DNA of 64,000 nucleotides from Escherichia coli (lineage in GTDB: Bacteria; Pseudomonadota; Gammaproteobacteria; Enterobacterales; Enterobacteriaceae): assembly GCF_003018115.1 (NCBI RefSeq), contig NZ_CP027457.1. The stretch is one strand, 5' to 3'. Position 1 is the stretch's first letter; each line of letters opens with the position of its first letter. The position numbers and the translations under genes were made by a program. Below, piece by piece: positions 5,496 to 63,748 of the stretch. The notes beneath the pieces are model-generated. The model saw nothing but the letters and a program-made list of their open reading frames with translations, was not told the origin of the DNA and did no database searches.

Positions 5496-6119
5496 CTAAC
5501 GTGTGACCGCGTTAAAAATGTTGTCTGCGATTGACTCTTCCTTGTGGCATTGCACCACCAGAGCGTCATACAGCGGCTTAACAGTGCGTGACCAGGTGGG
5601 TTGGGTAAGGTTTGGGATTAGCATCGTCACAGCGCGATATGCGGCGCTTGCTGGCATCCTTGAATAACCGACGCCTTTGCATCTTCCGCACTCTTTCTCG
5701 ACAACTCTCCCCCACTGCTCTGTTTTTGCTATATCAACCGCACGGCCTGTACCGTGGCAATCTCTGCATCTTGCGCCCGGCGTCGCGGCACTACGGCAAT
5801 AATCCGCATAAGCGAATGTTGCGAGCACTTGCAGCACCTTTGCCTTAGTATTTCCTTCAAGCTTTGCCACACCACGGTATTTCCCCGATACCTTGTGTGC
5901 AAATTGCATCAGATAGTTGATAGCCTTTTGTTTGTCGTTCTGGCTGAGTTCGTGCTTACCACAGAATGCAGCCATGCCGAATCCGGCTTGTGATTGCGCC
6001 ATCCCCATAGCAGCCATCACATCAGTACCGGAAAGAGAGTCAGAAGCCGTGGCCCGTGGTGAGTCGCTCATCATCGGGCTTTTTGGCGAATGAAATTTAG
6101 CTACGCTTTCGAGTCTCAT
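5496..6119 (-). CDS. Q: Late-gene antiterminator Q (lambda Q-type, 207 aa)
   Basis: 207-aa ORF with zinc-binding motif CRDCHGTG...CGRCKG, positioned immediately upstream of pR' and the lysis genes. Confidence 0.85.
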   Translation of the reverse strand: MRLESVAKFHSPKSPMMSDSPRATASDSLSGTDVMAAMGMAQSQAGFGMAAFCGKHELSQNDKQKAINYLMQFAHKVSGKYRGVAKLEGNTKAKVLQVLATFAYADYCRSAATPGARCRDCHGTGRAVDIAKTEQWGRVVEKECGRCKGVGYSRMPASAAYRAVTMLIPNLTQPTWSRTVKPLYDALVVQCHKEESIADNIFNAVTR

Positions 6120-54922: not shown

Positions 54923-56062
54923 TTAGTACAGAGAGTGGGTGTTACGTTCAATATCTTCTTTGGTGATACGACCGAACATTTTCCAGTAACACCAGGCGGT
55001 GTAGAGCAGAATGATCGGTACCAGAACCACCGCAACCCAGGTCATGACGTTAAGCGTCAGCTGGCTGGAAGTTGCATCCCACATTGTCAGACTTGCGTTC
55101 ATCATGGTGCTGGACGGCATCACAAACGGGAACATTGCGATACCGGCAGTCAGGATGATGCAGGCCAGCGTCAGGGAGGAGAACACAAACGCCCACGCGG
55201 CTTTATCCATACGTGCAGTCAGGATGGTCAGCAGCGGCAGAACCACACCCAGTGCCGGAATAGCCCACAGAATTGGCGTGTTGTTGAAGTTAACCAGCCA
55301 TGCGCCAGCTTCACGAACCACTTCTTTATTCAGCGGGTTAGAGGCTGCGTAATGGTCCATTGTCGATTTCACGACATAACCATCGATACCGTACATCACC
55401 CATACGCCAGCCAGTGCGAAACAGACCAGTGTCACCAGTGCCGCCACCTGAGCCGTTGCACGGGTACGCAGGTGCAGTTCGCCCACGGTACGCATTTGCA
55501 GATAGGTTGCGCCCTGAGTAATGATCATCCCTACGCTCACCACGCCTGCCAGCAGGCCGAACGGGTTAAGCAGCTGGAAGAAGTTACCGGTGTAGTACAG
55601 ACGCAGATATTCATCAACGTTGAACGGTACGCCCTGCAACAGGTTACCGAACGCTACACCAATCACCAACGGCGGAACGAAGCTACCAATGAAGATGCCC
55701 CAGTCCCACATGTTACGCCAGCGGGTTTCTTCAATCTTGGAGCGGTAGTCAAAACCGACCGGACGGAAGAACAAAGACGCCAGCACGAGGATCATCGCCA
55801 CATAGAAGCCGGAGAACGCAGCGGCATAGACCATCGGCCAGGCAGCAAACAGTGCGCCGCCTGCGGTGATCAGCCATACCTGGTTACCGTCCCAGTGTGG
55901 CGCGATGGAGTTAATCATAATTCGACGCTCGGTGTCGTTACGACCGAGGAAACGGGTGAGCATGCCCACCCCCATGTCGAAACCGTCAGTGACTGCAAAA
56001 CCAATCAGCAGAACGCCAACCAGCAGCCACCAGATAAAACGCAATACTTCATAATCGATCAT
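54923..56062 (-). CDS. cydB: Cytochrome bd-I ubiquinol oxidase subunit II
   Basis: 379-aa polytopic ORF MIDYEVLRFIWWLLVGVLLIGFAVTDGFDMG... Confidence 0.95.
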   Translation of the reverse strand: MIDYEVLRFIWWLLVGVLLIGFAVTDGFDMGVGMLTRFLGRNDTERRIMINSIAPHWDGNQVWLITAGGALFAAWPMVYAAAFSGFYVAMILVLASLFFRPVGFDYRSKIEETRWRNMWDWGIFIGSFVPPLVIGVAFGNLLQGVPFNVDEYLRLYYTGNFFQLLNPFGLLAGVVSVGMIITQGATYLQMRTVGELHLRTRATAQVAALVTLVCFALAGVWVMYGIDGYVVKSTMDHYAASNPLNKEVVREAGAWLVNFNNTPILWAIPALGVVLPLLTILTARMDKAAWAFVFSSLTLACIILTAGIAMFPFVMPSSTMMNASLTMWDATSSQLTLNVMTWVAVVLVPIILLYTAWCYWKMFGRITKEDIERNTHSLY

Positions 56063-56077
56063 TTGACGACTCCTGTC

Positions 56078-57646
56078 TTAGCGTGCCGGCTGAGTAGTCG
56101 TGGAAGACTGCTCAAAGTGATAGCGACCGGTTTTCAGGCTGCTTGGGCCGAGGCGTGCAAACTTGAACATTAAGAACAATTCTGCCACCAGGAACAGGGT
56201 ATACAGGCCGCAAATCAGCACCATCGAGAAGATGAGGTCGCCTGCGGTCAGCGACGAGTTCGCCACGGCGGTAGGCAGCACTTCACCGATAGCCCACGGT
56301 TGGCGACCATATTCGGCAACGAACCAGCCCGCTTCTACAGCAATCCACGGCAGCGGAATACCGTACAGCGCGGCGCGCAGCAGCCATTTTTTCTCGCCAA
56401 TGCGGTTGCGGATGACACTCCAGAAAGAGAGCGCGATGATTGCCAGCAGCAGGAAGCCACACGCCACCATGATACGGAACGCGAAGTACAGCGGCGCTAC
56501 ACGCGGAATGGAGTCTTTGGTTGCCTGTTGAATCTGAGCTTCAGTCGCATCAGCCACGTTTGGCGTATAGCGTTTCAGCAGCAGACCGTAACCGAGGTCT
56601 TTCTTCATGCTATTGAACTGGTCACGAACCGCCTGGTCGGTAGAACCAGAACGCAGTTGTTCGAGCAGAGAGTACGCCTTCATCCCGTTACGAATGCGTT
56701 CTTCATGCTGCACCATCAGTTCTTTCAGGCCGATAACTGGAGTATCCACGGAACGCGTTGCAATGATGCCCAGCGCGTAAGGGATCTGGATCGCAAATTT
56801 GTTCGTCTCCTCTTCCTGATCAGGAATGCCGAACAGAGTAAAGGCAGCAGGCGCAGGTTGCGTTTCCCACTCGGCTTCAATAGCAGCCAGTTTGGTTTTC
56901 TGCACGTCGCCCATTTCGTAACCAGATTCATCACCCAGAACAATAACAGACAGAACGGCAGCCATACCGAAGCTGGCAGCGATAGCAAAGGAGCGTTTAG
57001 CGAAGGCGAAGTCACGACCTTTCAGCATATACCATGCGCTGATACCGAGGATGAACATCGCGCCAGTCACATAACCAGACGCTACAGTGTGAACGAATTT
57101 CACCTGAGCAACCGGGTTAAGCACCAGCTCGGAGAAGCTCACCATCTCCATACGCATAGTTTCAAAGTTGAAATCGGACGCGATTGGGTTTTGCATCCAG
57201 CCGTTCGCAACCAGAATCCACAGTGCGGACAGATTTGAACCGAGCGCCACCAGCCAGGTGACACACATATGCTGAACTTTACCCAGACGATCCCAACCGA
57301 AGAAGAACAGACCTACAAAGGTGGATTCGAGGAAGAAGGCCATCAGACCTTCGATTGCCAGCGGCGCACCGAAGATATCCCCTACATAGTGGGAATAGTA
57401 AGACCAGTTAGTCCCGAACTGGAACTCCATGGTCAGACCGGTAGCCACACCCAGAGCGAAGTTGATACCAAACAACTTGCCCCAGAACTTGGTCATATCT
57501 TTATAAATCTGTTTGCCGGAAAGGACGTAGACCGTTTCCATAATGGCCAGCAGGAACGCCATACCGAGCGTCAGTGGCACAAAAAGGAAGTGGTACATCG
57601 CGGTCAAGGCAAACTGTAAGCGCGACAGTTCGACTATATCTAACAT
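56078..57646 (-). CDS. cydA: Cytochrome bd-I ubiquinol oxidase subunit I
   Basis: About 522-aa [31 protein letters not shown]... Confidence 0.95.
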
Positions 57647-57983
57647 CATGACTCCTTGCTCATCGCATGAAGACTCCGAGAGTGAACCCCGTTAGAAAGG
57701 GTCACACGCATGCCCCAATACAAAATTATTTGCTCGCCTCTATCGTTGCCATTTCATCAAAAGAGGAAAAGACAATGATAAAAAAGTTACAAATATGTTA
57801 ATGAATAAACCAAATTGATCCCGTAATTATATTACGCCGCAAAATCCTTACAATAAACAGGTTTTTATTGAGCAAATTTGCATTTTTCGACAGTGATCAA
57901 TTTATAGCGAAATTGTCACGATCTCACCAATTTGATCTACGACAATTTATCGTGTTTTGCAGATTTTTTTCAAGAATTAAAAA

Positions 57984-57997
57984 TTGATTTATATCAA
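57984..57997. promoter_or_regulatory. FNR-type box (TTGAT-N4-ATCAA) in the cydAB upstream regulatory region
   Basis: Perfect palindrome TTGATTTATATCAA about 340 bp upstream of the cydA start. Confidence 0.55.
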
Positions 57998-58451
57998 AAT
58001 CAACCAAATATGTTAATTATGTATAAACCATAGATCATTGGTGATTTTATTGTTAATTTATTGTGAAATATTTATGCAACACAATTATTACAATGAAAAG
58101 GTATAGATAAAAAACCAGTATTTTATTTAACAGAACCGCCTTATCCACTTTTTATAATACCAATTGATTAGAGTAGCCAATTTGTTGCTATTTTACATAA
58201 CATATTTTTATCAAAGTTAATTGATTGTTGCCTTTATGAGCACCGACCGTAAGCCCGTTATGTTATTGTTTCATTAGTAATAATCACTTAAATGTATCGA
58301 TGAAACAGGTATGACTTACCGGGAGTGATTGTTTCTGAGTGAACAGAGGCCACTTTCGCCTGATAAATGAAAAATGAGCGATTTTTGCAAGTTAGTTTTT
58401 CTATAGCCGAGTACGCTCAGCGCCTCGCTTGATTACAATGAGGTTGCTGCT

Positions 58452-59396
58452 ATGAGTCCTGATAATATCGGTTCGGCTGTCAATCGCTTCTCAGGTTGGC
58501 CATCTAATGATCCTCTAAAAACAGATGAAGAATCAATGACATCACCCGTGACTGTGCAAGTAATAAAGATGATTGCCGCCATCCTTGACCCACATCGGAT
58601 AGTCGGTGGAATTGATACACTTTATACAACGCAGCGCGAAACATTTACCTCAGAGAGTCAACAGCTCATTGAATCAGCATTGCAAACACTTCATGTGATG
58701 AATTTAAATAATCTGGAAACAAATCGCGATGAAGAAGGTCACTATCTGGCTTTTGAATATAACGTTGACACCTCTGACAGAATAACCGTTTCTGCTTATA
58801 ATGAAAAAAAGCCTGGCTGCTATGGCCAATGTCTTTTAATACAGGATGACGAAACAGACTTATTTAACCTGATAAAAATTAAAATTTTCGAAGCCAGGCA
58901 TAATTATGTCGCTCAATTGATGAGCGATCCGGAATTTATGTTCAAATTCAGTTATAGCGCTCAACAAAATAGATTAGAACCTCATCTTCTGGTTCCCGCT
59001 TATTTCCCTCTAAAAACAAACGAACCGGTTACGCAAGAGGATGTACTGTTACTTTATCGTTTCTTTAAAATGAATGATGATTTTAATAAATTAACATCAG
59101 AGGAATACATGAGTATCATGACTCCTCTGATGAAGTGTGAGCGTAGCGTCCACGACAACAACAGGTATGTGACGGGCAAAGATACCCTTCTTCTGGACTA
59201 TCCTCCTTCTGGTAACCAGATACATTTCCATATTTTCCCTGACGAATCAGCAACACTAGTCCTTTATTTTTCAAACAATGACCTTGAATGTTTCGTCTTT
59301 GAAAGAGATATTCCTAGCCAGTATCGCTTTTTCAAAATGTTTACCAATCTGGCACTGGTTATAGATCAGTTAACCGAAGCCAATAAAATACTTTAA
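58452..59396 (+). CDS. Hypothetical protein (314 aa), AT-rich, no family recognised; internal YRFFKM repeat
   Basis: Long ORF in a very AT-rich segment; motif LYRFFKMNDDF / QYRFFKMFTNL occurs twice. Confidence 0.55.
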   Translation: MSPDNIGSAVNRFSGWPSNDPLKTDEESMTSPVTVQVIKMIAAILDPHRIVGGIDTLYTTQRETFTSESQQLIESALQTLHVMNLNNLETNRDEEGHYLAFEYNVDTSDRITVSAYNEKKPGCYGQCLLIQDDETDLFNLIKIKIFEARHNYVAQLMSDPEFMFKFSYSAQQNRLEPHLLVPAYFPLKTNEPVTQEDVLLLYRFFKMNDDFNKLTSEEYMSIMTPLMKCERSVHDNNRYVTGKDTLLLDYPPSGNQIHFHIFPDESATLVLYFSNNDLECFVFERDIPSQYRFFKMFTNLALVIDQLTEANKIL

Positions 59397-59476
59397 TTTT
59401 CTATATATCCCTATGGCAAATATTGCTAAACAATGCCTGGGGATTAATTTTTATTACTCACGGAAAGATTTAAATA

Positions 59477-59899
59477 ATGATACCATCTCAGATCTCTTTC
59501 AATACCCTTCCAGTCAATGCAACATACGCTTCAGAGACAACAGTTGACACACAAAAATTCTCTGACATCCTCTACTCAGCGGGGTGTTCCCTAAAGGATA
59601 TGGCTTATCTGAGCAGATGTCTGGCATCAATACACCCGACTCTCGCCAAAAACATTTATGAAACAGAAAATCTCAGCGATCAAAAATTACTGCATATTGA
59701 TTGCCGTAGTACAAATGACATCAAGATAAATATCTTTTTTGGTCAGCAACGAGAAGGATTAATTGAAATTAGTTCTGACACAGTTATTTTTTCGATACTG
59801 TCTTCATTGATTGACTCCGCCATTTCTAAATTTCAACATCAAAACCCCGTTAACGGTTCAGTTAATCCTGAACTATTGTATGAGGATTATACTGATTAA
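59477..59899 (+). CDS. Hypothetical protein (140 aa), AT-rich, acidic C-terminus
   Basis: ORF 80 bp downstream of the 314-aa gene, same strand. Confidence 0.5.
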   Translation: MIPSQISFNTLPVNATYASETTVDTQKFSDILYSAGCSLKDMAYLSRCLASIHPTLAKNIYETENLSDQKLLHIDCRSTNDIKINIFFGQQREGLIEISSDTVIFSILSSLIDSAISKFQHQNPVNGSVNPELLYEDYTD

Positions 59900-60446
59900 A
59901 CCCACCCAGTCGCGAAAAATGGCCTGCGTTATTGCCAGACGTAATAAAACCGTTGATTAACGTTACTCATACTGGTAGCACCTTCATGTACCTCTCTTTT
60001 TTACGAAAAATCAAAAGAGCTAACTAAGGTCATAATTCGCATGAATCATTAACCATTTGTTATTTTCAACATTATTTTTACATTAAGCAGAGATGAATTG
60101 CAGTGAAATTCGACTTAAATCTTATGAAATGCATTTACTCATGGCTAAAACCACGTCACAAAAATGCAAATTAGAAGTAGATCACAATTATCTCAATACA
60201 TTAAATCAAGTTAATTTTAAAAATTTAACATTCATGTCATTAGTTGACATAACACACTGAATTAACATGGAAATTTAAAAACACACTTTAAACAATCATT
60301 TCCCGAAAGACATTTTGAAAATAGATCAATTGCAACATTACGGTCAGATAAAGACACTCCTGTGATATTAAACCTGTGCCGTTATGAACGGCCATAAATA
60401 CGACGTGTGTAACTTATTTTACTCTCTGTCTTACAAAGGATTACCC

Positions 60447-60896
60447 ATGAAGAAAGCAACACTTGTGATTGGCGTTATTGGCGCGGACTGCCATGCAGTA
60501 GGCAATAAAGTTCTGGACCGCGTTTTTAGCAACCACGACTTCAGAGTCATTAATCTGGGCGTAATGGTCAGCCAGGACGAATATATTGATGCTGCCATCG
60601 AAACTGGCGCTGACGCGATTATCGTCTCCTCTATCTATGGGCATGGCGATATCGACTGTCTGGGCATGCGCGAACGCTGCATCGAGCGTGGACTGGGTGA
60701 CATCCTCCTCTATGTGGGCGGTAACCTGGTGGTCGGAAAACATGACTTCGCTGACGTGGAAACCAAGTTCAAAGAGATGGGATTTGATCGCGTCTTTGCC
60801 CCAAGTCATGACTTAGAAGATGTTTGTCAGCTGATGGCCCACGATATCAATCAACGTCATGACGTTGATACTCGTATTCTTGAAGAGGCTATCTGA
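60447..60896 (+). CDS. glmS: Glutamate mutase sigma subunit (methylaspartate mutase S; B12-binding domain)
   Basis: [27 protein letters not shown]... with the DxHxxG cobalamin-binding signature; about 149 aa from internal ATG. Confidence 0.85.
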
Positions 60897-62284
60897 TGCA
60901 AATCGTCTCTGTCGATATTGGATCGACGTGGACCAAAGCAGCCCTCTTCACCCGGGAGGGGGACGCGTTAACGTTGGTTAACCACGTACTGACCCCAACC
61001 ACCACCCATCATCTGGCGAAGGGGTTTTTCTCCAGCCTGAACCAGGTGTTAAACGTAGATAATGCCCTCCCCCTGTTAAACAGCGGTGAGGTTGCATTGA
61101 AGTATTCCTCCTCTGCCAAAGGTGGGCTGGCGGTTGCCGCAATGGGATTGGTGCCTTCTATCACCCTGGAAACCGCGAAAGTAACCGCTCACTCTGCGGG
61201 GGCTAAAATTGCGCAATATTACGCCTACAAGCTGAACCGCCGTGATATCCAGGCACTGGAAGAAACGCAGCCCGATATTCTCTTGTTCACCGGCGGCACC
61301 GACGGCGGAGAAGAAAGCTACGGACTGAATAACGCCCGTGTGCTGGCAGAATCCAAACTCGACTGCGCCATTATTTATGCCGGAAACCGGGATATTCAGG
61401 ACGAGGTGCAGGAGATCCTCGGGCATAAAGACCTGACCATCGTCGACAACGTTCTGCCCGATCTTGACCATCCGAACCCTTTAGCCGCACGCCAGGCTAT
61501 CTGCGACATATTCCTTAAACGCATCGTTAAAGGGAAAGGGCTGGATATCATTGTTGATAAAACAGGCGAAGAACCAATGCCGACACCGTGGACAGTCTTT
61601 GAACTGGTTAAGGCAATCAGTAATGTCGATCACAGCTGGAAAGAGTTCATGCTGATCGACATGGGTGGCGCAACCACCGATGTCTATTCCGCCTGTGCCA
61701 ACACGCTCTCGCCCGACACCGTTTTACACGGCGTACCGGAACCCTTCGTAAAACGGACGGTGGAAGGCGATCTGGGAATGCGCGTCTCGGCAATGGTGGT
61801 TGGTGAAAGTGCGAAAGAGTTAGTCAATGTGAATTTTGCTCAGCACCCCGCACAGCTGGACGCTTTTTATCATTACCTCCGTCATCTAGTCGCTCATCCC
61901 GACTACTTACCCGCAAATGCAGAAGAGAAATATTTCGATACCGTCCTGGCCGGACTGTGTGTGGGTTATGCCACCGAAAGACATGCGGGCACCAAAAAAG
62001 AGGTCTGCACCTGCGTCGGCAATGTCGATTTACAGATGGGACGTGACCTGACAACCGTGCGTAAAGTCGTCGGATCCGGCGGATGGCTCTCGCGTGCCTG
62101 TCAGTTCGATATGCATCACTGGTTGAAATACCGCGAGTTAAACGACGACGGTAAACGCATTCTCTTACCGACCGAATTTGAATATTACCGCGATTCCCGG
62201 GGGCTATTACCACTGCTGGCAAACGTCGCCAGAGTCGATCCGCTGGCCGCCGCGCGCACCAGTATTCAATGCTTAACCCTATAA
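60896..62284 (+). CDS. glmL: Glutamate mutase accessory protein (GlmL/MutL-like)
   Basis: 462-aa ORF between the S and E subunit genes with overlapping start (ATGA). Confidence 0.75.
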   Translation: MQIVSVDIGSTWTKAALFTREGDALTLVNHVLTPTTTHHLAKGFFSSLNQVLNVDNALPLLNSGEVALKYSSSAKGGLAVAAMGLVPSITLETAKVTAHSAGAKIAQYYAYKLNRRDIQALEETQPDILLFTGGTDGGEESYGLNNARVLAESKLDCAIIYAGNRDIQDEVQEILGHKDLTIVDNVLPDLDHPNPLAARQAICDIFLKRIVKGKGLDIIVDKTGEEPMPTPWTVFELVKAISNVDHSWKEFMLIDMGGATTDVYSACANTLSPDTVLHGVPEPFVKRTVEGDLGMRVSAMVVGESAKELVNVNFAQHPAQLDAFYHYLRHLVAHPDYLPANAEEKYFDTVLAGLCVGYATERHAGTKKEVCTCVGNVDLQMGRDLTTVRKVVGSGGWLSRACQFDMHHWLKYRELNDDGKRILLPTEFEYYRDSRGLLPLLANVARVDPLAAARTSIQCLTL

Positions 62285-62302: not shown

Positions 62303-63748
62303 ATGGAACTTCGAAATAAGAAATTAACCCATGACGAATTCATGACCGAGCGGCAACAGGTACTGAAAACCTGGGAAACCGGCAAGGATGTTGAAAACTT
62401 TGAAGATGGCGTTAAATACCAACAAACCATTCCTGAGCATAAACGCTTCTCTCTTGCGCTGCTGAAAGCAGACAAGGAAGGTAAAACCCTTAGCCAACCG
62501 CGCGCAGGTGTGGCGCTGATGGACGAACACATCGAACTACTGAAAACACTACAAGAAGAGTGCGATCTGCTGCCGAGCACTATCGATGCATATACCCGTC
62601 TGAATCGGTACGAAGAAGCGGCTGTAGGAATTAAAAAATCCATCGAAGCCGGAACCTCTAAACTGAACGGTTTACCGGTAGTTAACCACGGCGTCGCAGC
62701 TTGCCGTCGCCTCACCGAAACCCTGCAAAAACCGCTACAGATCCGCCACGGCACGCCAGATGCGCGTCTGCTGGCTGAAATCTCGATGTCCAGCGGCTTT
62801 ACCAGTTACGAAGGCGGCGGCATTTCCTACAACATTCCGTATGCCAAACGCGTAACGCTGGAAAAATCGATCCACGACTGGCAGTACTGCGACCGTTTAA
62901 TGGGGATGTATGAAGAACACGGGATCCGCATCAACCGCGAACCGTTTGGCCCACTAACAGGTACGCTGATCCCGCCGTTTATCTCGCACTCTATCGCGAT
63001 AATCGAAGGCTTGCTGGCGCTGGAACAGGGTGTGAAATCTATCACCGTTGGTTATGGACAGGTCGGCAGCCTGACGCAGGATGTTGCGGCGATCCAGTCT
63101 CTGCGTGAACTTGCACACGAATATTTTCAGAGCTATGGCTATACCGACTATGAATTAAGTACCGTGTTTCACCAGTGGATGGGCGGCTTTCCGGAAGACG
63201 AATCGAAAGCGTTCGCTATTATCTCATGGGGCGCAGCCGTCGCGGGGATGTCTGGTGCCACCAAAGTCATCACCAAAAGTCCGCATGAAGCCTGGGGCAT
63301 CCCGACTGCCGCTGCCAACATTCAGGGGCTGAAAGCCTCCCGCCAGATGCTCAACATGGTCAACGAGCAGAAATTCCCGCCGTGCCCTGCGGTTGAACTG
63401 GAAATTGAACTGATTAAGAGCGAGGTTCGCGCGGTACTGAATAAAGTGTTCGAACTGGGTAATGGTGATATTGCGCGCGGTACGGTGCTGGCATTTGAAG
63501 CGGGCGTACTGGATGTGCCGTTTGCGCCAGCCGCCTGCAACGCGGGCAAAATTCTTCCGGTCCGTGACAACACCGGCGCGATACGCGTACTGGAAGCCGG
63601 AGCCGTTCCATTGCCAAAAGATATTCTCGACCTCCACCACGATTACGTTGCGGAACGCGCACGTTTTGAAGGACGCCAACCGACATTCCAGATGGTTGTA
63701 GATGACATCAATGCTGTATCCCATAGTAAATTAATAGGAAGACCATAA
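62303..63748 (+). CDS. glmE: Glutamate mutase epsilon subunit (methylaspartate mutase E)
   Basis: 481-aa ORF, TIM-barrel catalytic subunit by recognition; gene order S-L-E as in clostridial operons. Confidence 0.85.
   Translation: MELRNKKLTHDEFMTERQQVLKTWETGKDVENFEDGVKYQQTIPEHKRFSLALLKADKEGKTLSQPRAGVALMDEHIELLKTLQEECDLLPSTIDAYTRLNRYEEAAVGIKKSIEAGTSKLNGLPVVNHGVAACRRLTETLQKPLQIRHGTPDARLLAEISMSSGFTSYEGGGISYNIPYAKRVTLEKSIHDWQYCDRLMGMYEEHGIRINREPFGPLTGTLIPPFISHSIAIIEGLLALEQGVKSITVGYGQVGSLTQDVAAIQSLRELAHEYFQSYGYTDYELSTVFHQWMGGFPEDESKAFAIISWGAAVAGMSGATKVITKSPHEAWGIPTAAANIQGLKASRQMLNMVNEQKFPPCPAVELEIELIKSEVRAVLNKVFELGNGDIARGTVLAFEAGVLDVPFAPAACNAGKILPVRDNTGAIRVLEAGAVPLPKDILDLHHDYVAERARFEGRQPTFQMVVDDINAVSHSKLIGRP

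Follow-up and report, generated by a model that had tools for sequence, protein, structure and literature searches.

Gene context of the glm upstream region

The window analysed here, a continuous stretch of 64,000 nucleotides of Escherichia coli DNA, carries the chromosomal cydAB genes on the minus strand (54923-57649), followed on the plus strand by two orphan ORFs of 314 aa (58452-59396) and 140 aa (59477-59899), each annotated in RefSeq as 'hypothetical protein', and then by glmS (60447-60896), glmL (60896-62284) and glmE (62303-63748), also on the plus strand. The first gene of the operon, glmS, is annotated in RefSeq as the S subunit of methylaspartate (glutamate) mutase and encodes a Pfam B12-binding domain (2.1e-13). 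Past the window the island continues with genes for methylaspartate ammonia-lyase, an AtuA-family protein, a DUF4387 protein, a dicarboxylate/amino-acid symporter, the class I fumarase FumD and CobO, and it ends, about 10 kb downstream of glmS, with a convergent gene for a LysR-family regulator. This glutamate mutase, methylaspartase and FumD island is present in about one fifth of E. coli, including EHEC of serotypes O157:H7 and O145, and in many opportunistic enterobacteria. The cluster has been described, with its LysR gene labelled only as putative, and the operon has been reported to be silent in laboratory culture, inducing conditions not having been found in the one study located that examined its expression (Kronen & Berg 2015, PMC4682846). 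A search of the literature by locus tag (ECs07xx, Z089x) and by topic returned no data on the start site or regulation of the operon.

The gap that precedes glmS extends from the end of the upstream ORF at 59899 to the glmS ATG at 60447 and thus measures exactly 547 bp (59900-60446). Its GC content is 0.327, compared with 0.492 across the window, and falls to a minimum of 0.265-0.29 between 60000 and 60399 (200-bp windows), while the glm genes lie at 0.50-0.58. The interval was found in 1135 of 5426 complete E. coli genomes, and in none of these 1135 does any annotated feature lie beneath it. Direct and inverted repeats in the gap are all short and at chance level. Four mechanical ORFs of 31-55 aa can be drawn within it; the longest (60093-60260, 55 aa) was considered as a hidden small gene and rejected as non-coding, because substitutions are spread evenly over its three codon positions and the frame is disrupted in sister Escherichia: that of Escherichia sp. 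MOD1-EC7003 has a frameshift, and that of E. whittamii is broken. The initial, sequence-only reading of the window, which had described some 550 bp of very low GC without an ORF ahead of glmS, is thus borne out in both respects, the second in practice if not to the letter.

Composite origin of the intergenic DNA

Comparison with relatives indicates that 59900-60446 is a composite non-coding spacer, whose proximal part of about 290 bp (60156-60446) is ancestral glm upstream DNA. In alignments of the window with E. whittamii and Escherichia sp. E1V33, similarity stops at about 58287-58292 and resumes at 60156-60158. Two segments are common to these relatives and E. coli: the cydA control region, from 57600 to about 58290, and a stretch from about 60156 to 60500. 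The 1.86 kb between has no counterpart in E. whittamii or E1V33 except for a single 42-bp match (60041-60082); in other genera alignment begins only at about 60249. This 1.86-kb, AT-rich stretch (about 58293-60155), which contains the two orphan ORFs, is an insertion confined to E. coli and its nearest relatives. Since alignments to relatives resume only at about 60156, the distal 256 bp of the gap (59900-60155) represent the 3' flank of that insertion. No conserved element, terminator-like site or excess folding was found in 59900-60155, and these 256 bp are without detectable function.

Searches of Pfam, NCBIfam, PHROGs, PADLOC and PDB sequences with the orphan ORFs of the insertion (314 and 140 aa) gave nothing significant. 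The module is wedged between the control regions of cydA and glm, occurs in essentially all glm-positive E. coli, and is missing from E. whittamii and other genera. A second AT-rich gap of about 800 bp (57650-58451) lies upstream of cydA, and at this junction E. coli genomes fall into three classes: the segment 57650-58022 is common to all, about 1100 further genomes match up to 58287 at 90-95% identity, and 1132 genomes hold the full sequence, including the orphan module.

A conserved box and predicted promoter upstream of glmS

GlmS relatives were scanned in one genome per species, which gave 80 loci, and the upstream regions of the 53 belonging to Enterobacterales were analysed. The most prominent conserved feature is an operator-like box of 45 bp, AACAATCATTTCCCGAAAGACATTTTGAAAATAGATCAATTGCAA, with core TTTTGAAAATAGATCAATTGC, on the plus strand at 60291-60335, or about -74 to -30 relative to the start proposed below. 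Within it a 20-mer, TT(T/C)TGAAAATAGATCAATTG, followed by C (60313-60333), is invariant in 36 Enterobacteriaceae loci, positions 60313-60332 being fixed but for the single T/C position. Information content reaches 2.0 bits per column at 60320-60329, against 0.3-0.9 in flanks that are nearly unalignable. With 4-9 changes the box can be recognised upstream of glmS in all 53 Enterobacterales loci; Yersinia, Morganella, Hafnia, Budvicia and Yokenella have variants of it. Neither the 64-kb window nor the E. coli island contains a second copy. Four Escherichia alleles, which show up to 42 differences elsewhere in the gap, have no polymorphism in 60290-60343. The symmetry of the box is imperfect: a GAT-N13-ATC dyad is centred near -47 (GAC-N13-ATC in the E. 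coli copy), and an ATC-N11-GAT dyad near -62 is confined to part of the Enterobacteriaceae.

These observations bear on one possible account of the region, that it is mere AT-rich xenogeneic spacer coated by H-NS and devoid of specific elements, its length and composition being by-products of transfer. Much about the locus would suit such an account: the GC content of 0.327 and the accessory distribution (1135 of 5426 genomes) are those of DNA typically silenced by H-NS, one half of the gap derives from the insertion, the operon is not expressed in laboratory culture, and a generic promoter scan of the region returned 11 hits when 12.4 were expected in shuffled sequence. The proximal half nevertheless holds invariant blocks amid unalignable flanks, and H-NS coating cannot be the whole story because neutral spacer DNA would not keep such blocks. 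We therefore regard this account, taken by itself, as very unlikely; H-NS silencing is compatible with the explanation preferred below as an added layer.

At its 3' end the box overlaps a predicted -35 hexamer, TTGCAA (60330-60335, plus strand), which is followed after 17 bp by a predicted weak -10 hexamer, GACACT (60353-60358, plus strand), of the form nAnAnT. Among 46 distinct promoter instances from more than 10 genera, TTG of the -35 is present in every one, and the -10 retains A at position 2 in 46, A at position 4 in 45 and T at position 6 in 45; the spacer is 17 bp in all 46, and its sequence is free. The pair TTGCAA/GACACT thus has the layout of a sigma-70 promoter (hexamers 17±1 bp apart, with A2 and T6 in the -10), matching 7 of 12 consensus positions. 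That score falls below the threshold of the generic scan, which is why the scan missed it. The weakness of the -10 implies that the promoter is probably activator-dependent; we accordingly describe it as a weak sigma-70-type promoter that would probably need an activator. Together with the distal box discussed below, the near-invariant operator-like box and the 17-bp-spaced hexamers lend comparative support to the suggestion, made from the window alone, that the gap might hold a promoter and regulator binding sites.

Predicted 5'UTR and the question of an RNA leader

From the position of the -10 we infer a transcription start at 60364-60366, which would leave a 5'UTR of about 82 nt (60365-60446, plus strand). 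Its only region of conserved sequence is the Shine-Dalgarno AAAGGA (60435-60440, plus strand). A small hairpin, GCCGTT/AACGGC (60375-60394, plus strand), falls within the predicted UTR; it was rejected as a conserved element, as its counterparts, found in many genera and not in all, differ in sequence and have a mean z of -0.65. The predicted glmS UTR spans 52-248 nt in other genera. Most Enterobacteriaceae have predicted UTRs of 58-86 nt, and three Pseudescherichia-like loci have 70-71 nt. Citrobacter amalonaticus S646 (L012:3809-4000) has a predicted UTR of 192 nt with an extra stretch of about 110-130 bp, which by eye we take to resemble an ERIC/IRU repeat; in E. coli an element of similar appearance separates the LysR gene from rtcB (L083, about 5725-5845). 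The 'long leader' proposed from the window alone survives only in part: the gap is real, and the part of it predicted to be transcribed measures no more than about 82 nt. To call the whole interval a leader is misleading, as most of it lies upstream of the predicted promoter.

The same reading had raised, as a speculation, riboswitch-like control. The idea that the interval contains a riboswitch or other structured cis-acting RNA, sensing B12, glutamate or the like, or a leader-peptide attenuator, has an obvious attraction, given the length of the gap and an operon that codes for an adenosylcobalamin enzyme; a long non-coding stretch ahead of genes for B12-dependent enzymes is a trait shared with cobalamin riboswitch leaders (RF00174). 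Nothing found at the locus bears it out. The suggested Rfam/Infernal scan (cmscan of 57500-61000 at the permissive setting of E<=10) gave only noise, namely three eukaryotic snoRNA or lncRNA hits, all with E>=3.5, and ten related loci from eight genera gave no hit at the gathering score. Folding of sliding 120-nt windows on both strands, compared with dinucleotide shuffles, yielded unremarkable z values of -1.9 to +1.25, and RNAalifold on 24 orthologous 5'UTRs gave a consensus of -0.13 kcal/mol, with four trivial pairs and no compensatory changes. There is no terminator-like site within 59900-60446, no conserved upstream leader ORF in the gap, and no conservation across the short predicted UTR outside the Shine-Dalgarno region. 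The glm gap differs from RF00174 leaders, then, in lacking a model match, a conserved structure and an expression platform, and in having a predicted UTR that is too short. We consider an RNA device of this kind extremely improbable, and genome annotation should not mark this long AT-rich gap as a potential riboswitch.

Distal and middle elements

Further upstream, the ancestral segment contains a CRP-like box, GCAAATTAGAAGTAGATCACAATTATCT (60166-60193, plus strand), whose core TTAGA-N6-TCACA (60171-60186) is centred at 60178.5, or about -186. The 16-bp core TTAGAAGTAGATCACA agrees with TGTGA-N6-TCACA at 8 of its 10 defined positions. Across genera the context reads AAAATAAGA-N6-TCACAAA; the right half is kept, and the left half is TAAGA in most and lost in Enterobacter and Pluralibacter. 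Among the Escherichia alleles variation is restricted to the N6 stretch and the flanks. In Enterobacteriaceae a distance of 143-150 bp separates the motif GATCACA(A), or a close variant such as GCTCACA or TATCACA, from ATCAATTG downstream of it; in Yersinia, Morganella, Hafnia and Budvicia the distance is 157-178 bp. The DNA between the distal box and ATCAATTG is not conserved. The centre of the box coincides with none of the class I or class II positions of CRP (-41.5, -61.5, -72.5 and so on), and we term the element only CRP-like because about -186 is not a classical position for CRP. It sits just inside the ancestral boundary at 60156, which fits the view that insertion was tolerated only upstream of the distal box.

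Between the two boxes an alignment of 24 sequences reveals a middle block, TAACACACTGAATTAACATGG (60250-60270, plus strand; consensus yAACAC..TGAT.TAAA), in which at least 90% of the sequences agree at the alignment columns A52, A53, T59 and G60 and which averages about 1.0 bit per column, compared with 0.3-0.5 in its flanks. It could be an auxiliary protein site or, given the TG at 60258-59, an extended -10-like alternative promoter.

The second possibility leads to a different picture of the operon, in which transcription would start further upstream, for example from the extended -10-like TG-n-ATTAAC (60258-60266), and the proximal box would lie inside a leader of about 175 nt as an operator, a roadblock or an RNA element. 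A TG with an A/T-rich hexamer is indeed kept in Enterobacteriaceae about 62-64 bp upstream of ATCAATTG. The block has no matching position in Yersinia, Morganella or Hafnia, however; the E. coli hexamer ATTAAC agrees with the consensus at only 3 of 6 positions; neither RNA structure nor covariation was detected; and the TTG-17-nAnAnT arrangement downstream is kept in every lineage. An upstream start appears improbable on these grounds. The conserved TATTAA (60366-60371) is another alternative promoter element in Enterobacteriaceae, and both elements count to some degree against the promoter predicted above, which remains the one we prefer.

A candidate regulator

The most likely candidate for the protein that would read the box is the LysR-family regulator encoded at the end of the island. 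Its top NCBIfam score is with the GcvA subfamily model, at 220 bits; since the cut-off is 288, it is not GcvA itself. The gene, or an ortholog or homolog of it, is linked to glm in E. coli and in six other genera. In Enterobacter, Salmonella and Yokenella an ortholog flanks the cluster; the Yersinia ortholog is 63% identical and lies upstream of the cluster instead of at its far end; and in the Betaproteobacteria Aromatoleum and Rhodoferax homologs of 43-45% identity are directly divergent from glmS. The recognition helix, LTQSAVFRQ, is the same from E. coli to Yersinia. In Yokenella regensburgei (L086:4452-10891) the LysR gene is divergent from a B12-uptake-like operon, comprising a FecCD permease, an ABC ATPase, a TonB-dependent receptor and a periplasmic binding protein, which runs into glmS. 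There the box occurs twice, once in the intergenic region shared with the LysR gene (TTGCCT-17-TATATA) and once before glmS (TTGCAG-17-CATATT); a cobalamin riboswitch was not detected at this locus.

The glm region has much in common with promoters governed by LysR-type regulators of the GcvA subfamily, such as GcvA at gcvTHP. One point of likeness is the linkage of the operon to a LysR gene of this subfamily. In gcvT, site 1 for GcvA occupies about -69 to -34 and a CRP site lies far upstream; in glm, similarly, a protein-sized block at about -74 to -30 overlaps a weak -35, and a CRP-like box lies far upstream. The regulator divergent from the operon in Yokenella, Aromatoleum and Rhodoferax is likewise typical of LysR-type systems. 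Several features depart from the pattern and count against the assignment. The regulator gene of E. coli is convergent and 10 kb from the promoter instead of divergent, as it is convergent at the far end of the island in Salmonella and Enterobacter too; the clean T-N11-A dyad at -65 sought in the box was not found, the best conserved dyad lying near -47; and no second copy of the box was found near the regulator gene or elsewhere in the islands of E. coli, Salmonella and Enterobacter. On balance, good circumstantial evidence points to the island LysR protein as the activator that would bind the operator.

The box could instead be a class II site for a global regulator of the CRP/FNR family, or for some other chromosomal regulator, with LysR uninvolved; the status of oxygen or carbon would then switch the operon directly. 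The box does contain a partial dyad, TTGA-N7-TCAA, centred at 60322 (-42/-43), over the -35 and close to the class II position of -41.5, and its right half, ATCAA, is an FNR half-site. A poor -10 is also characteristic of class II CRP and FNR promoters, a global factor conserved between genera would fit the strict invariance of the box, and the operon has an anaerobic or catabolic role, the pathway relying on oxygen-sensitive enzymes (PMC4682846). The half-sites, however, are one base too far apart, with N7 where CRP and FNR sites have N6 (TGA-N6-TCA), and the left half is poor and variable: the best FNR alignment has three mismatches, all of them there, and this half changes in Yersinia and Morganella. 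Neither NarL, IHF nor sigma-54 consensus sequences match within the box, and ArcA matches, with 4-5 mismatches, fall outside it; scans with the FNR, CRP, ArcA, NarL, IHF and sigma-54 consensus sequences produced nothing convincing apart from the CRP-like 8/10 site at the distal box. Direct reading of the box by a CRP/FNR-type factor is in our judgement unlikely.

Proposed control of the operon

We think it probable, though well short of certain, that the region is regulated as an ordinary activator-dependent promoter, with the box read by LysR, a CRP-like partner upstream, and a weak sigma-70 promoter. What the comparisons show is the pattern of conservation, the geometry of the promoter, the linkage of the regulator gene and the lack of RNA signals; the transcription start, the pairing of proteins with boxes and the inducing signal are deduced from these. 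According to this scheme, the operon glmS-glmL-glmE-mal... would be transcribed from TTGCAA-17-GACACT, starting near 60365; a LysR activator of the GcvA subfamily would most likely bind the 45-bp box (-74 to -30), overlapping the -35; and the CRP-like box, about 145 bp upstream of the proximal core, would probably add catabolite control or DNA shaping. The distal element is a less comfortable part of the scheme, lying at about -186 with a left half-site that is weak or absent in some genera. Silencing by H-NS would likely form an extra layer, since the context is very AT-rich and horizontally acquired. The island resembles the H-NS-silenced islands of E. coli in being AT-rich, accessory and silent in the laboratory, and a dedicated activator could counter-silence it; it differs from them in that the conserved boxes suggest specific control beyond generic silencing.

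A bolder version of this scheme can be envisaged, in which the nearly invariant 20-29-bp box, its phased distal partner and LysR would form a hitherto undescribed switch for the cryptic glutamate-to-mesaconate/citramalate island of enterobacteria, responding to a signal that laboratory media do not supply, such as a metabolite made by the host or its microbiota, or in which the box would be read by a factor other than LysR. Either would explain why the glm genes have never been turned on in E. coli O157:H7, and we view them as unlikely. The more modest scheme is preferred, and in that light what was observed is real and its kind unremarkable: a promoter region of the activator type, lengthened by the remains of an insertion, in an AT-rich accessory island. 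The glm boxes and their likely regulator appear not to have been described previously. With a likely promoter, an operator candidate, a CRP-like box and a probable regulator in hand, the question of how this operon is induced becomes experimentally testable.

Variation around the regulator gene and the operon

A broken LysR gene was considered as a cause of silence in O157:H7 and rejected. In strain 7.1_Anguil of this serotype the gene (L088:4262-5168) is annotated as a frameshifted pseudogene, with an extra T in a T-run at nt 618; other O157:H7 genomes have it intact, and because the insertion occurs in only 1 of 1122 genomes it is either a strain-specific lesion or a sequencing error. Trabulsiella odontotermitis (L087) has a LysR ortholog of 67% identity beside cobT, surrounded by pieces of IS elements and group II introns. 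No glm genes occur within 10 kb of this ortholog, which may be what is left of a cluster that has decayed.

Outside the genera in which glm is linked to cydA (loci L015, L018, L022, L031 and L038-L051), the operon adjoins cobalamin-related genes. Judged by eye from their translations, these neighbours encode a uroporphyrinogen-III methyltransferase, a CobD-like aminotransferase, a PduX-like kinase and a sirohaem synthase-like protein. In Enterobacter, Lelliottia, Pluralibacter and Buttiauxella these putative cobalamin genes are transcribed divergently from glm, and in Yersinia, Morganella, Hafnia and Budvicia they point the same way as glm.
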